Below are positions 8,452 through 26,782 of a stretch of 42,967 nt of DNA, in pieces. The notes beneath the pieces were generated by a model. It saw only the letters and a list, made by a program, of their open reading frames with translations. It had not been told where the DNA came from and did not search any database. The stretch covers positions 1 to 42,967 of the IMG/VR virus record IMGVR_UViG_2563366803_000007. One strand, 5' to 3'. The stretch comes from a virus (lineage: Duplodnaviria > Heunggongvirae > Uroviricota > Caudoviricetes). Position 1 is the stretch's first letter, and the number at the start of each line of letters is the position of its first letter. Both the position numbers and the translations under genes were made by a program.

Positions 8452-8793
8452 CTACTTAACTCTCTGACAGTCGTACGTCCAGAACTCTCTGGGCTCGTCC
8501 ATGTTCTTGCGGATCACTTCGACGTTGAGGATGGCCTTATTGTTGCGCTTAACGTAGTCGAGACCTAGCCAACGCCCTGTTTTGGCGTCTGGGAGCATCC
8601 ATTGCATCATGACGTTATCGAAGTCGTCTTTTTGCTTGAGGAAGGTCATTTTCTGCGTTTCAGGGGCTTGTCCGTTGATATGCATCAACCCATCGCTTTC
8701 GCCCTTTAAGAAAAAAGGTCCGCATTGAGTGGCAGAAAAAGCTCCGCAGGAATAAAACAACCCAAAGACCAAAAATATTCCTAATTTTTTCAT
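8452..8793 (-). CDS. Small secreted hypothetical protein with N-terminal signal peptide (113 aa)
   Basis: N-terminus MKKLGIFLVFGLFYSCGAFSA is signal-peptide-like; ATG overlaps the stop of the upstream baseplate gene. Confidence 0.5.
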   Translation of the reverse strand: MKKLGIFLVFGLFYSCGAFSATQCGPFFLKGESDGLMHINGQAPETQKMTFLKQKDDFDNVMMQWMLPDAKTGRWLGLDYVKRNNKAILNVEVIRKNMDEPREFWTYDCQRVK

Positions 8794-9815
8794 CAGCCAA
8801 CCTTGTTTAAAGTGCTCAGGCTTTGCAGTTCTCTAGCCCCTTTCGCCAGACACAGCAGGTCCATATACCACGCCTGCCCGCGAGTATCGCCAGTATAGTC
8901 AATGCTGCCGACAATGTAATCACCGTCGGTATTGATTGCCGCCAGCTGCGACCCGGGAAGCCCATCGACATAGATGTTACCGTCTGTGGTACTTTCGCCT
9001 AAGATACCTGGTGACTGGCCAACCTGGTCATTACCGAGAGCCTGACGATATACAGAGGCCTGATCCAGCCTGATAAGCCCACCAAGCTTAATATTCGGGT
9101 TTATCAGACAGCGCACATTTACCCCGGCGCCCATCGTCTGCTGAGGCATACCGATCAGGCCCGTATTGGCGTTCAGTACAATCGCTTCCTGTATGTACTT
9201 ATCATCAGGAACAATATGCACCTGGTTGTTTTCGTACCACCAGTTAGCCTTACATTGCCCTGCAAGGCTGTACATCAGGCGTCCAGTGTTCTGATAAATA
9301 GTGCGGCCGCGGGGGAATACAGTTGGACCAAAATCCGGCCTGCTTCCCTCTGTAATGCCATAAGGGCTAAGGGACTGCATACCCAAATCAAACAGGTCAG
9401 CATGCTTCCAGCCTGCCGATACTGTCGTTTTCACGCTGGCGTTGAGATGCCCCTCCCAGCCATCAATACACTGGATGAGCACCCAACTATCGGTGACGTT
9501 ATCTTTTCCGGTAACGGTAAAGCGAATATCACCGTTAAAGATGATCCCCACATTTTTATCAGGATAGTTACCACTGCTGTCTGCTGTGCCGTTATACCCG
9601 GCAATAGCCCTTACACGAGTAAACTCTTTACCCATGATCCGGTTTTGTGTCTCCGGCGACAGATTGTAGATTTTGAAGTTACCCACGAATCCGTTAAAGA
9701 TAGTCGCGGGCATCTTCTGGATATTAAACGTCACCTTAAAATCCGACAGCGAAACCCCATCACCCTTGTCGTCAATAAGCTGCAGCTCAAAGTGCCGCAT
9801 CCAGTTCTGAGACAT
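8793..9815 (-). CDS. Baseplate hub/tail protein (340 aa from ATG at 9813..9815)
   Basis: GGAG RBS before ATG; track ORF begins at an upstream GTG; position between tape measure and baseplate genes. Confidence 0.5.
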   Translation of the reverse strand: MSQNWMRHFELQLIDDKGDGVSLSDFKVTFNIQKMPATIFNGFVGNFKIYNLSPETQNRIMGKEFTRVRAIAGYNGTADSSGNYPDKNVGIIFNGDIRFTVTGKDNVTDSWVLIQCIDGWEGHLNASVKTTVSAGWKHADLFDLGMQSLSPYGITEGSRPDFGPTVFPRGRTIYQNTGRLMYSLAGQCKANWWYENNQVHIVPDDKYIQEAIVLNANTGLIGMPQQTMGAGVNVRCLINPNIKLGGLIRLDQASVYRQALGNDQVGQSPGILGESTTDGNIYVDGLPGSQLAAINTDGDYIVGSIDYTGDTRGQAWYMDLLCLAKGARELQSLSTLNKVG

Positions 9816-9817
9816 AA

Positions 9818-10120
9818 TCACTCCGTTACTGCGTAGAGATGGCTTTTAATGCCGAGGTCGGTTTGGGTTGGATTATCATTTGCCGGGTCGTCGCAATTGA
9901 CATAGAGCGAAAAGCCAAGCCCGAGATAGCGATACTGCGCCAGCAGGTTGGCGCCGGTGATAAGCGGGATCCCCTTTATCAGGTCGGCCCCGGTACTGTC
10001 CATAATATCCAGACACCAGAAAGCAGCACGCCAGGTGACAGCCATTTGCAGGCTTTGACCTGCAACAGATATGGAGAATCGCTGGTTTTCTGGTGATAGA
10101 GGGATTTCTGAAACAGCCAT
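9818..10120 (-). CDS. Tail protein (100 aa)
   Basis: Tightly packed in the tail operon downstream of the tape measure gene. Confidence 0.45.
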   Translation of the reverse strand: MAVSEIPLSPENQRFSISVAGQSLQMAVTWRAAFWCLDIMDSTGADLIKGIPLITGANLLAQYRYLGLGFSLYVNCDDPANDNPTQTDLGIKSHLYAVTE

Positions 10121-10720
10121 TTAACCTCCCGAGATGAAACCGACAAACCGGCTTATTAGCGACTCATCTTTCGGAGTCGGTGTCTTTACTCCTGAATTTT
10201 GCACCGCTGACGTGTTCACTCCCTCTTTCATGTTTTCCTTCGCTGCCACGCTGACTGTCTGCGTCTGGCTGGTGATTATTTCCCTGAGCGTAACTGTCGC
10301 CATCAGTACGTTTTCGCTGGTACGTTCGGTCGTCACATCCAGAGAGCGGATCACCATATTGGTATAAAGACGTTTCCCGGTAGTCACATCAAGCAACTGC
10401 CTTTCCTGCTGCATTTTGAGCAGCTCAGCATAGACTTCCTTAGGCCCCATGTTGTTAAGGGGCGTAGACAGCCCGATGCCTGCTGTATCATAAAAATCCA
10501 GCAAGGAACCACCACCAGCAAAGCCTATCTCCATAACGACTTCTGACGGGCGCCGATATGCATGGTCTGCAATGAACCCTGTTCCTGCGCTTGTAGGCCT
10601 TTCAACTGGATGCTCTGTCACCTCCAGAGCATCGCTATGACGCTCTGAAACCACCACATCGGGTATCATCAGACCAATACGGCGGCTCCGCTGCTGGAAA
10701 AGGGTTGAAAGAATATCCAT
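10121..10720 (-). CDS. Tail protein (199 aa)
   Basis: Start overlaps the tape measure stop; tail operon context. Confidence 0.45.
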   Translation of the reverse strand: MDILSTLFQQRSRRIGLMIPDVVVSERHSDALEVTEHPVERPTSAGTGFIADHAYRRPSEVVMEIGFAGGGSLLDFYDTAGIGLSTPLNNMGPKEVYAELLKMQQERQLLDVTTGKRLYTNMVIRSLDVTTERTSENVLMATVTLREIITSQTQTVSVAAKENMKEGVNTSAVQNSGVKTPTPKDESLISRFVGFISGG

Positions 10721-12720
10721 CAGCTCGGCCCCCTGGTTAGTTGCTGGGTAGCGCGTGCATTAACGTTGCCCTGGCTTTCAGAGACGATTTTCCCCGCCTC
10801 TCTCGGATCGCTGACACCAGAAATGTTGATAACGGTATTCTGGTTCAATGTCGCGCCAGCCCCCGGCATATTGCTCAACACCTTCGGGATATATTGCCTG
10901 GTTTCCTGCGGCATCAGCGCCATGCCGTATTTCTGCACGTTACCGATCCCCCAGTTATACGAGGCCAGAGCTTTACCCAGATCTCCGCCGTTCTTCTGCA
11001 GGAGCATCGATAGATATCGCGCCGCCGCTTCCGCTGACTTGATCGGGTCGAAGACATCATTCCCGCGTAGCCCCATATCCCGAGCGGTGCCAGGCATAAA
11101 CTGGAACATTCCCTGTGCGCCGGCACCGGATACAGCGAACTGATTCCCCCCTGATTCAGTGATAGCGACACTTCGCAGAAGACCAGAAGGAAGGTTATAC
11201 ATAGCCTCCAGCTTACCCATCATCGGGGCCATCCATCCAAGCAACTGAGCGCCAGCTTTTGAAGGTGACGGTCGTTTCACTGATTGTCCGTACTGCGTGG
11301 CATCACCATTCCACCAGTCAACAGCCTTATCCCATAACCCCTGCCCGACAGAGGCGGCACCCTGAATAATCGGGCTATCACTCCACGCTGCGGCTGCGCC
11401 TTTAAGCGAATCCCATGCGCCGGAGAAATCGCCACTAATAACCTTACGCAGAGCGTCCACCAGCGAACCAAGGATTTTGATTGAACTGCGGACGCTTTCG
11501 ATAATCTGGTCAAACAGCCATTTGCCATTAAATTTCGACGTATCGATATTAATGAATTCAAGGAATCGCTTACCCAGATCGACGATGGCAGAGCCAAGGT
11601 CTTTAACCTTCAGATAGATGCCACCAAAGTCCTTACTCAGGCTGGCAAAAGCCTTTTGGGCATATTTGATACCCGGCTCCCATTTCCCCCAGTCTATGAG
11701 CGACTGGCCGCCTTCTTTCCACGTACGATAATCGTCGTAGAGACCTATCAGCGCGGCTCCCAGCATAAAGACACGGCCAATGGGCGACATCGCAAAGGCG
11801 GTATTCAGAAGGCGCCAGGCAACCATCAATGCGCCAAATACCTCAATAACTTGTCTGGTTTCGGTACCGAGTGATTTCCACCAGTTGATAATGTCCCCGG
11901 TGAGCTGTATCAACCGATAAACCACCCGGCCAATGATTTCACCAAACCACAGGACACCTTTGACACCAGCAGTGATAGCCCCTTCAATTTTCGGGAAATT
12001 CTCCATGACCTGACGGCGCAGGCGGTCCAGCGAGCCCGTCAGACCATCGGCCAGACTGGAACCGATTTTGTCCCGCGCCATACCGGCCATTTCGCCGAGG
12101 GAACGGAGTGAGGTCATAAACCTGTTAGACGCAGCAGCAGCCTGTTCAGGATTGAACCCGATGGCCTTTTTCATCGCGTTGTACTGGCCCATGTACTCAC
12201 CAATACCACGGCGCATTGCCATCAGGGTGTTTTCATCCAGACCCAGCATCTGAGCGTACTGGTTAGCTCGGTAATACGGCATGCTGCTAAGACGCTGGCC
12301 GACGCCGGTAAAGATCGTCGCCATATCCCGCATGTTACCGCTGGCATCACGCGTTTGAACCCCCAGCCGGTTCAGAAAACCCTCAGCGCCGGGATTGTTA
12401 CGCATGAACCTGGCAAGATTTTCGAGAGAGCCGCGGGCCCCGTCGACACTGCCGCCAACCTGACTAACCGCATACCCAATCTGCTTAATGCCCTCCACCG
12501 TCGCGCCTGTGCGCTGAGAGGCCCAGTACAGGTCGTCGAGACCGCTGGCAATTTTCGCGGTGAATGCAACGACGGAAAGTGCCGCCGCCTCAACTTTGAC
12601 GCCCAGTTCAATCGCTTTAAGCGTTGTCCCGGCAACGACGGCATCGAATTTTCTGGCGCCAGCCTCATCAACTTTGAACCCAAGCGAGATCAGAAAGTCC
12701 TTGAGCGTTTCAGCGTTCAT
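10720..12720 (-). CDS. Tail tape measure protein with lytic transglycosylase (SLT) domain (666 aa)
   Basis: Predicted membrane/coiled-coil N-terminal part; C-terminal SLT-like block VAITESGGNQFAVSGAGAQGMFQFMPGTARDMGL. Confidence 0.8.
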   Translation of the reverse strand: MNAETLKDFLISLGFKVDEAGARKFDAVVAGTTLKAIELGVKVEAAALSVVAFTAKIASGLDDLYWASQRTGATVEGIKQIGYAVSQVGGSVDGARGSLENLARFMRNNPGAEGFLNRLGVQTRDASGNMRDMATIFTGVGQRLSSMPYYRANQYAQMLGLDENTLMAMRRGIGEYMGQYNAMKKAIGFNPEQAAAASNRFMTSLRSLGEMAGMARDKIGSSLADGLTGSLDRLRRQVMENFPKIEGAITAGVKGVLWFGEIIGRVVYRLIQLTGDIINWWKSLGTETRQVIEVFGALMVAWRLLNTAFAMSPIGRVFMLGAALIGLYDDYRTWKEGGQSLIDWGKWEPGIKYAQKAFASLSKDFGGIYLKVKDLGSAIVDLGKRFLEFINIDTSKFNGKWLFDQIIESVRSSIKILGSLVDALRKVISGDFSGAWDSLKGAAAAWSDSPIIQGAASVGQGLWDKAVDWWNGDATQYGQSVKRPSPSKAGAQLLGWMAPMMGKLEAMYNLPSGLLRSVAITESGGNQFAVSGAGAQGMFQFMPGTARDMGLRGNDVFDPIKSAEAAARYLSMLLQKNGGDLGKALASYNWGIGNVQKYGMALMPQETRQYIPKVLSNMPGAGATLNQNTVINISGVSDPREAGKIVSESQGNVNARATQQLTRGPS

Positions 12721-12903
12721 TAGCCTCTCTCCATTTCGCTATACGGTTTTCGTTATCGGCTTTCAGGTCCAGCCAGTCATTCATACGGGCAATATCAGCC
12801 AGGTCTACTGATCCATCTTTCAGGGCGGTGTAAGGGATAAGCCCGGCATCCACCGGGCGCATCAGGAAATCCTCGCCTTCTGGCATGGATTCCAGGACAG
12901 GAC

Positions 12904-13323
12904 CTATGGCTGGGTAGGCGTCCCGCTGGCGGGGAGTTCTTTCAAAAAATTTCCCAGACTATCGGCGACCACCCGCGCCACCAGCTGCAGCATGGTAAAC
13001 AGGTCCGTATCGTCGAACATCAGTACGCCCTGATCGAACACCTTCGTCCAGCCCTTTTCGTGCTGGCGGGAAACGACGCTCAGGCACGGATAAATCACCG
13101 CGTTAACGTCCTCATCCGGCAGCGCGGCCAGCGTATCGGCAATTTTCGGCAGTACGCTTTCCAGCACTGCACCAGAGTTACCCGCAGCGGCCTGCGCTTT
13201 CAGCGTGGAAAATTCACTAACGAGCCCGGCCAGCACCGGCAGCAGCTTACGGCTGACCTTCAGTTGCTGGAATACGTCAAGTTTGGCGGTTCGGTAATTA
13301 ACCCCTTTGATTTCAAATTCCAT
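12904..13323 (-). CDS. Tail assembly chaperone (G-like, 139 aa); frameshift extends product to 12710
   Basis: Position immediately upstream of tape measure gene; -1 frame stays open for 64 codons beyond the slippery site. Confidence 0.6.
   Translation of the reverse strand: MEFEIKGVNYRTAKLDVFQQLKVSRKLLPVLAGLVSEFSTLKAQAAAGNSGAVLESVLPKIADTLAALPDEDVNAVIYPCLSVVSRQHEKGWTKVFDQGVLMFDDTDLFTMLQLVARVVADSLGNFLKELPASGTPTQP
12943..12951 (-). other. Putative programmed -1 frameshift site (AAT TTT TTG) giving a G-T fusion chaperone ending at 12710
   Basis: Slippery T-run 13 codons before the zero-frame stop; -1 frame open to TGA at 12710..12712, 4 nt past the tape measure ATG. Confidence 0.55.
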
Positions 13324-13779: not shown

Positions 13780-14925
13780 TTATCGCACCACATTGATCTG
13801 CACGTCAGCATAGTGAATGGCACCCGCCAGTTTGATCGCCGCCTGAATCACCGGCGACTTACGCGCTTCCCTGTCGGACTGCGCCTGGTTTTCTACTGAA
13901 TCGGCGTGGACGTAGTAACCCTTGGTCAGTGTGTCACCTGATTCAATCTGGCCGATCGGGCCGCCATTCCATACACCCGGAGCCACCAGGCCGTTATTAA
14001 CCGCCTGGTCGAGTGACGCTTCGACGTTGGTCATTAACCGGGTAACGCCCGCGTCGGTTTGCGGAATTTTGGTAGTCGAGGTGTACAGCAGGTTGTAAAG
14101 GTTGGTCTGCACGTAGTTCTGCAACCAGTCCAGGCCGTGGCGTTCATCAAAGAAATCGCCGTTAGCCATCACTCCCTGCTGGAGGATAGCCGTATCATTC
14201 TGGTAGTGCACGAATACATTGCAGTTTTTTGCATCAAGTGCCGATGCCTGGCTGACTGTCAGTGTTTCATACCCGACGCCCGGCTCCTGCTTAAACTTGA
14301 GCGTAATCGCGGTATTACTGCCATTGAAATTAACCGTGAATGCCCGGCCAAATGCAGATAACGCAGCGTATTTATTACCCGATGAATACTGAATAAAACT
14401 GCGTGAATATCCGGCGGTTTTCAGTTTTGATGCCAAATCATCGCTGGATGCAGTCTGCAGGCATTTCTCATCGCTTGTCGTAATCGCCAGAATACGGCTT
14501 ACAGAAGAGGATTCGATCGCCGCAGCCACTTTCAGCCAGTCTGCATCCGGAATATCTGCATCGTCTGCAATCCCCAGCCCATACCATGAAGTATAATCGA
14601 GCATGGCATTCACAGCCTGCTCCAGCGTCTCAGGCGTGGCCTGTTCGCTGTCTCCCTTCGTTTTCACCCAACGACCAACAAAAACCTCCTGAGGTTTCGG
14701 TGATTGAGAGAAAAACACCTGCGCAGCCTTATATTCTGGTGATTCCACGCCAAAATCTTTTCCAATATCTTCCGCGGCAGAATAACGGCGAATGCGCTCA
14801 CTTACCGGAATGATTGTGGACGGGCCGAGAATGAGTAATGCACCAAAATTTCGCCCTGATGCTGCACGCGGCGACATGATCACATCAACATTAACAACGT
14901 TTGATACAGGCAAGCCCTGTGCCAT
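13780..14925 (-). CDS. Tail sheath-like protein (381 aa)
   Basis: Size and position upstream of tube, chaperone and tape measure genes. Confidence 0.5.
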
Positions 14926-26626: not shown

Positions 26627-26702
26627 TGGTGCTGGTTAACGGACTTGAACCGCTACCCATTCGCTTACAAGGCGACTGCTCTACCATTGGAGCTAAACCA
26701 GC
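26627..26702 (-). tRNA. tRNA-Thr (anticodon UGU), phage-encoded
   Basis: Manual cloverleaf: 7-bp acceptor stem GCTGGTT/AACCAGC, D stem GCTC/GAGC, anticodon loop CTTGTAA, T loop TTCAAGT, 3' ACCA encoded. Confidence 0.6.
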
Positions 26703-26707
26703 ATATT

Positions 26708-26782
26708 TGGCGGGACAGCGTGGACTCGAACCACGATAAGAAGGTTAACAGCCTTCCGTAATGACCTTTATACGACTGACCC
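26708..26782 (-). tRNA. tRNA-Asn-like (anticodon GUU), possibly degenerate
   Basis: Manual cloverleaf: anticodon stem GAAGG/CCTTC, loop CTGTTAA, T arm CGTGG-TTCGAGT-CCACG, CCA encoded; one mismatch each in acceptor and D stems. Confidence 0.45.

Follow-up and report, generated by a model that had tools for sequence, protein, structure and literature searches.

Tail assembly chaperones of the G/GT class are recognised by several features, among them two of layout: the gene pair lies between the tail tube and tape measure genes, and the overlap of its two frames contains an in-phase slip site (Xu, Hendrix & Duda 2004, summarised in PMC3091744 and PMC5009743). In this class, the short form and the long form occur at a fixed low ratio; tail assembly requires the two of them, and virions contain neither (PMC3091744, PMC5009743). 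In phage P2, the E/E+E' site works without a downstream structure (PMC3091744). We analysed a tail assembly chaperone gene in a 42,967-nucleotide (nt) stretch of Caudoviricetes DNA (IMG/VR virus record IMGVR_UViG_2563366803_000007, positions 1 to 42,967; this whole stretch is called the window below). Judging from the sequences of the window and its relatives, the chaperone mRNA very probably undergoes a programmed ribosomal -1 frameshift that yields a chaperone of 139 amino acids (aa) and a rarer 204-aa fusion. The following elements define the locus.

Slippery run and -1 frame of the chaperone gene

13323..12904, minus strand: tail assembly chaperone gene (the 'G' part), 139 aa, 0 frame, stop codon TAG at 12906..12904, from the open reading frame (ORF) and its translation
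12961..12959, minus strand: TAG stop of the -1 frame, two codons upstream of the slippery run, the upstream limit for a productive shift
12955..12943, minus strand: slippery run GGGAAATTTTTTG, 13 nt, from sequence and phase
12943..12710, minus strand: -1 extension (the 'T' part), 77 codons (12943..12713) followed by TGA (12712..12710), from translation
12835..12719, minus strand: DUF6889 core (fusion residues 164-202), PF21829, E 1.6e-19, 69.8 bits against a gathering cut-off of 23.9
12720..10720, minus strand: tape measure gene, 666 aa, ATG at 12720..12718, phrog_2276, E 7e-211

The 139-aa chaperone ORF described by the initial annotation, which left its strand unstated, is present on the minus strand. 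It matches the Pfam family Phage_TAC_15 (PF21822; E 1.5e-34, 119.7 bits against a gathering cut-off of 22) and phrog_1688 'tail assembly chaperone' (E 3.4e-55). Codons 123-128 of this ORF read CTG GGA AAT TTT TTG AAA, and the slippery run consists of codons 124-127 with the G that precedes them. Three overlapping heptamers are contained in the run: G_GGA_AAT (12955..12949), A_AAT_TTT (12952..12946), and T_TTT_TTG (12949..12943). All three are in X_XXY_YYZ phase and lie inside the 55-nt overlap of the 0 and -1 frames, the placement expected of a G/GT slip site.

The extent of the -1 frame required some revision. AAT TTT TTG had been located thirteen codons before the chaperone stop, and this holds: TTG is codon 127 and is followed by 12 sense codons and the stop. 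After the TAG at 12961..12959, the -1 frame is open for 82 codons, up to the TGA at 12712..12710. The 64 open codons previously counted from the slip are those beyond the chaperone stop; counted from the slip site, there are 77. The TGA does lie within the tape measure gene, as had been proposed, with an overlap of 11 nt (ATGAACGCTGA) instead of 4. Codons 1-127 together with the -1 extension encode a 204-aa fusion, in agreement with the ~200 aa estimated before; residue 127 is F or L, depending on the heptamer used.

These features suggest the following mechanism. A minority of ribosomes would slip back one nucleotide on G GGA AAT TTT TTG (codons 124-127) and would then read 77 further codons in the -1 frame. 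The two products would share their first 126-127 residues, the abundant one being the 139-aa chaperone and the rarer one the 204-aa fusion, which would carry a flexible linker and a helical DUF6889 domain. The slip most likely involves tRNA-Phe on codon 126 (TTT), which occupies the A site in A_AAT_TTT and the P site in T_TTT_TTG, and the predicted fusion junction is ...GNFF-ERTP or ...GNFL-ERTP, again by heptamer. A_AA.U_UU.U belongs to the H_HH.U_UU.Y class, which is efficient in E. coli (PMC4066793). The sequences show the arrangement, its phase, the conservation of the -1 protein, and the lack of a conserved start; that ribosomes do slip, how often, on which heptamer, and to what the C-terminal domain binds are inferences.

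By analogy with lambda gpG/gpGT (PMC5009743) and P2 gpE/gpE+E', the N-terminal domain common to both forms would coat the tape measure protein. In the long form, the C-terminal domain would bring in the tail tube protein, its presumed partner, and the tube would thereby polymerise around the tape measure; neither chaperone form would stay in the virion. An AlphaFold model of the fusion, built on a 62-row alignment, has a mean predicted local distance difference test score (pLDDT) of 76. It predicts three parts: residues 1-126 fold as the N-terminal domain, residues 127-147 form a disordered linker that starts at the slip site, and residues 148-204 form a small helical domain (pLDDT 82-87).

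The DUF6889 extension and its conservation

The -1 extension matches phrog_4364 (E 2e-27) in addition to DUF6889. Across 33 representative relatives, the sample used for all codon-level comparisons below, the codon-position entropy of the -1 frame is 0.51/0.41/1.21, so that the third-position variation fits the -1 frame. In E. coli prophages, RefSeq/PGAP lists 'DUF6889 family protein' as a protein of 50 aa in its own right. Between the chaperone stop and the start chosen by PGAP lie 19 codons, which are also protein-like (0.50/0.36/1.28) and include a conserved LPxGEDxL motif. This motif lies after the chaperone stop and upstream of the PGAP start, and the stretch that holds it evolves as translated sequence and, in most relatives, can be translated solely by ribosomes coming from the chaperone frame.

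The PGAP annotation corresponds to a different reading of the locus, in which DUF6889 is a separate small gene of 50-58 aa with its own start, translated either by ribosomes that initiate at it directly or by those that re-initiate once past the chaperone stop. The window does have ATG codons at 12886 and 12862, and GAGGA precedes the latter. However, no start codon for the extension is conserved: where the window has these two ATGs, relatives have CTG, TTG, TTA, or CTT. The entries for the DUF6889 family in the databases (P0121-P0239), to which the names 'NTP pyrophosphohydrolase' and 'lytic transglycosylase' are often wrongly given, are between 48 and 102 aa long, and these inconsistent lengths imply that gene callers find no consistent start. 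Moreover, at every locus examined the -1 frame can be followed upstream, with no stop in between, as far as an in-phase slippery site, and the PGAP start leaves out the LPxGEDxL segment, which evolves as -1 frame coding sequence. We thus consider a separate gene very unlikely. A downstream frame that is a conserved protein segment lacking a conserved start is itself characteristic of the G/GT class.

Conservation of the -1 extension in relatives, which the initial annotation had offered as a check, was found in each set searched (8 phages, 80 contigs, 39 records, and distant phages). DNA searches returned phages and E. coli prophages with 68-98% identity. The annotated phages Mulock, Omnitron, EKP1, YP3, yong1, SEN34, 606R2, and PSTCR3, as well as one E. 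coli prophage, all have the extension in the -1 frame and the slippery run in the overlap. With the extension as query, DUF6889 was in the -1 frame relative to the chaperone at all IMG/VR loci retrieved (80/80), and T_TTT_TTN was in phase in the overlap, as in the eight annotated phages; the chaperone ORF was intact in 79 of them, the exception (L027) having a run of eight T (T8). A tblastn search of phage genomes with the fusion gave 39 matching records, and every one aligned as two pieces.

The arrangement persists as the sequences diverge. In nine of nine distant phages with 33-41% identity, from hosts including Acinetobacter, Burkholderia, Ralstonia, and Bordetella, the chaperone is in frame 0 and DUF6889 in frame -1. 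Eight of the nine carry an in-phase heptamer at or beside the homologous Phe codon; vB_PL1 has a T_TTT tetramer only. Two more scans yielded ~29 further unique loci that agree with this arrangement, and a scan seeded with the chaperone of a Providencia phage returned five near-identical loci only. Thus, the arrangement is present, or present with a change in the length of the T run, in every related locus examined in detail. The chaperone region of the window is 97.7% identical to the unannotated record Wanchaivirus PDP110P2 and to prophages of 51 complete E. coli genomes.

At the run itself, the six T (T6) are invariant in 34 of 34 non-redundant representatives, and the sequence 3' of the run diverges fast. 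The synonymous third positions of its AAT and TTT codons never vary. Around the region encoding LQLVARVVAD, the frozen codons are the slippery codons alone. An upstream stimulator at the LQLVARVVAD nucleotides had seemed conserved in the first eight relatives, and we rejected it when third-position entropy proved unremarkable across the 33 representatives.

Taken together, these comparisons bear out the conserved G/G-T arrangement that had been proposed for the window. Read from its sequence, the locus agrees with the G/GT class in every feature that can be tested in this way: its position, the in-phase run, a conserved -1 domain lacking its own start, and relatives that keep the arrangement down to ~33% amino-acid identity.

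The same data bear on the idea that the open -1 frame is a chance feature of the sequence and has no product. We scored the -1 frame after 48 in-phase X_XXY_YYZ heptamers in window ORFs of at least 100 aa. The median open run was 8.5 codons. Besides the three heptamers of the chaperone run, a single one, TTTAAAC at 8811, leads beyond its own ORF stop, into a -1 frame that is simply the next gene. The chaperone extension has its Pfam match, a codon-position pattern that fits the -1 frame, and a distribution across phages of Gamma- and Betaproteobacteria. A chance origin is scarcely credible and is refuted by this conservation.

The heptamer at 8811 deserves a separate remark. T_TTA_AAC (8811..8805, minus strand) is in phase 18 nt before the stop of a 342-aa baseplate hub ORF (9821..8793), and a slip there would fuse the hub ORF to the next gene (8793..8452). 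Its position is probably a coincidence.

Slippery heptamers and RNA structure across the family

Several observations weigh against frameshifting at this locus. No significant RNA structure was found downstream of the window's run (z-scores of -1.18, 0.27, and -0.15) or upstream of it, and no downstream structure is conserved in the window's clade (consensus energy of -3.8 kcal/mol for 15 members). In E. coli, U_UU.U_UU.G does not rank among the most efficient motifs (PMC4066793). The ATG at 12862, with GAGGA at a plausible spacing, may allow some independent initiation in this phage. The support for a frameshift product in the DUF6889/Phage_TAC_15 family is at the level of sequence: we found no paper in the literature that mentions DUF6889, and the genome paper of phage Mulock, a close relative, does not discuss a frameshift.

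The canonical -1 cassette, a heptamer followed by a 5-9 nt spacer and a stimulatory hairpin or pseudoknot, is thus not what the window's clade displays. An Rfam scan of the window found two tRNAs only and no recoding element. These are an adjacent pair:

26627-26782, minus strand: tRNA-Thr(TGT) and tRNA-Asn(GTT), from the Rfam scan

We considered the phage tRNA-Asn as a player at the slippery AAT codon and rejected it. Sf6, HK446, phage 21, BTP1, and other phages carry the pair at 99-100% identity; since these carry different structural modules, the tRNA pair must be a separate mobile module.

Distant relatives present another picture. Their slip site at the homologous Phe codon is X_XXT_TTT (A_AAT_TTT, C_CCT_TTT, or G_GGT_TTT), and 18 of 19 unique distant-relative sequences fold, unconstrained, into a hairpin of 6-8 base pairs that starts 6 nt past the heptamer. 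In relatives of the Acinetobacter, Burkholderia, and WC36-2 type (L099-L103, L107-L147), the hairpin is GGGCUG(CU)...(AG)CAGCCC. The stem has compensatory changes: position 4 occurs as C-G (n = 10), U-A (n = 5), and, as an intermediate, U-G (n = 3), and position 3 shows one change from G-C to A-U (GGACUG/CAGUCC, in MD-2021a). Bordetella phage IFTN9 has G_GGA_AAT followed by ACT TTC in place of X_XXT_TTT, and a strong hairpin (z-score of -3.1) 7 nt past the heptamer. Given the slip sites found in distant relatives, the Phe codon TTT preceded by T is the most widely shared element of the family, missing solely in the Bordetella-type relatives. Taken as a whole, the family resembles a conventional frameshift cassette, since a covarying hairpin follows the heptamer in distant relatives.

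The T run could in principle act at transcription rather than translation. RNA polymerase would add one U on the T6 run, and part of the mRNAs would then carry an in-frame fusion; one extra U yields exactly the fusion reading. Assembly variants with longer runs exist, with seven T (T7; P0002 and L104) or eight (L027), which indicates that the length of the run is to some degree unstable. Efficient transcriptional slippage in bacteria needs runs of about 8-9 or more, however, and the window has six T only. Distant relatives have only four T (CCT TTT ATT, AAT TTT ATT), with a hairpin at the spacing of ribosomal frameshifting; therefore, ribosomal slippage is most consistent with the family as a whole, and we give transcriptional slippage a very slim chance.

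The length variants themselves are either homopolymer sequencing errors or real mutants. In the T7 variant, the chaperone and DUF6889 form an in-frame fusion of 213 aa (P0002, with 16 member sequences; L104 1897-1910, one Logan contig), and in the T8 variant the chaperone is truncated at the run. Other in-frame fusions (P0001, P0035, and P0042) are deletion or frameshifted artefacts. Neither these nor the T7 variant P0002 were used as evidence for the fusion.

Ribosomal frameshifting remains our preferred reading, and the contrast between clades raises the question of how its signal evolved. In the window's clade, a longer slippery run seems to have taken the place of the hairpin. We tentatively suggest, at slightly less than even confidence, that the signal was rebuilt within one family: distant members would combine a single X_XXT_TTT with a hairpin, and the enterobacterial clade would have lost the hairpin and acquired a triple-heptamer run that ends in a P2-type U6G, the adjacent slip sites substituting for the stimulator. 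Should this be true, the C-terminal half of a frameshifted chaperone would lie behind hundreds of database entries now called 'DUF6889 family protein', 'NTP pyrophosphohydrolase', or 'lytic transglycosylase'.

The main value of these results lies in annotation. For the window chaperone, the best annotation would be two products that share one start, with 139 and 204 aa, and for the stand-alone 'DUF6889' ORF of automatic pipelines, a fragment of the frameshifted chaperone, probably not a gene of its own. In this group of contractile-tail phages, we propose that DUF6889 and phrog_4364 act as the 'T' domain of a tail assembly chaperone. The understanding of frameshifting or of tail assembly is unchanged. 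What is mildly new is confined to one point: within one family, a single heptamer assisted by a hairpin and a triple heptamer free of structure appear to have been swapped. The existence of clades with and without a hairpin makes a small point on the evolution of frameshift signals.

Gene order and comparison with known systems

The genes that precede the chaperone gene complete the setting of the locus:

14925..13780, minus strand: tail sheath gene, phrog_205 'tail sheath' (E 4e-134) and PF11863
13770..13327, minus strand: tail tube gene, directly upstream of the chaperone gene, PF11681 (Phage_Tube_PhiTE), E 4.7e-63

On the minus strand, the order is sheath, tube, chaperone, and tape measure, followed by Dit-like, plug, and hub proteins. 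The chaperone gene thus stands between the tube and tape measure genes on one strand, which is the G/GT position. The tape measure protein has a C-terminal SLT lytic transglycosylase domain (residues 502-600, window 10921-11217, minus strand; PF01464, E 5.9e-25). The window as a whole resembles a complete temperate phage of ~43 kilobases, with a contractile-tail structural module on the minus strand, at about 900-24200, plus other functions.

How does the locus compare with the described chaperones? Like the window, P2 has a contractile tail, and its gpE/gpE+E' gene lies between the tube and tape measure genes. The P2 FETUD tail operon has an annotated -1 site, TTTTTTG, in the same phase as the window's T_TTT_TTG. 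The two also share the absence of a downstream stimulatory structure and an extension whose stop lies a few nucleotides into the tape measure gene. They differ in that the P2 proteins are smaller (91 and 142 aa) and in that the window has two additional overlapping heptamers upstream of T6G.

P2 (L106 1670-1678) carries AAGGTGGTCGG, which resembles the 3' part of a Shine-Dalgarno sequence, directly upstream of TTTTTTG, and the window carries GGGTGGTCGCC at 12964-12975 on the minus strand, ~15 nt upstream of the slippery run and ~21 nt from the T6 run. Both are Shine-Dalgarno-like, but their spacings are unlike, and the resemblance is likely a coincidence.

Sequence homology to either classical system was not detected: hhalign gave a probability of 0.35% for P2 E, with no Pfam match to P2 families, and of 0.37% for lambda G. 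A Pfam scan of the fusion at E up to 0.01 found no families other than PF21822 and PF21829. The absence of sequence homology between such tail chaperones is usual.

The likeness to lambda gpG/gpGT is one of layout. The gene position is the same, an abundant short form goes with a rare long form (predicted, in the window), G is of similar size (140 aa), and the extension reaches as far as the tape measure gene. Compared with the lambda heptamer G_GGA_AAG (PMC5009743), the window's G_GGA_AAT has a different last base only. On the other hand, the lambda tail is non-contractile, and in lambda a ratio of ~30:1 and the partners of the T domain have been measured.

The nearest annotated counterparts are found within the family. 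Klebsiella phage Mulock (MN098327) has 88% DNA identity to the window in this region; its GGA AAT TTT TTG run is identical, and its extension likewise overlaps the tape measure gene by 11 nt. Burkholderia phage Magia (MT701587) encodes the same protein families, yet it has C_CCT_TTT with a downstream hairpin and no T6 run. The GenBank records of both phages contain a joined coding sequence annotated as 'tape measure chaperone frameshift product'. The frameshift in this chaperone family is thus already known from GenBank annotation, and the window is an ordinary example of it.

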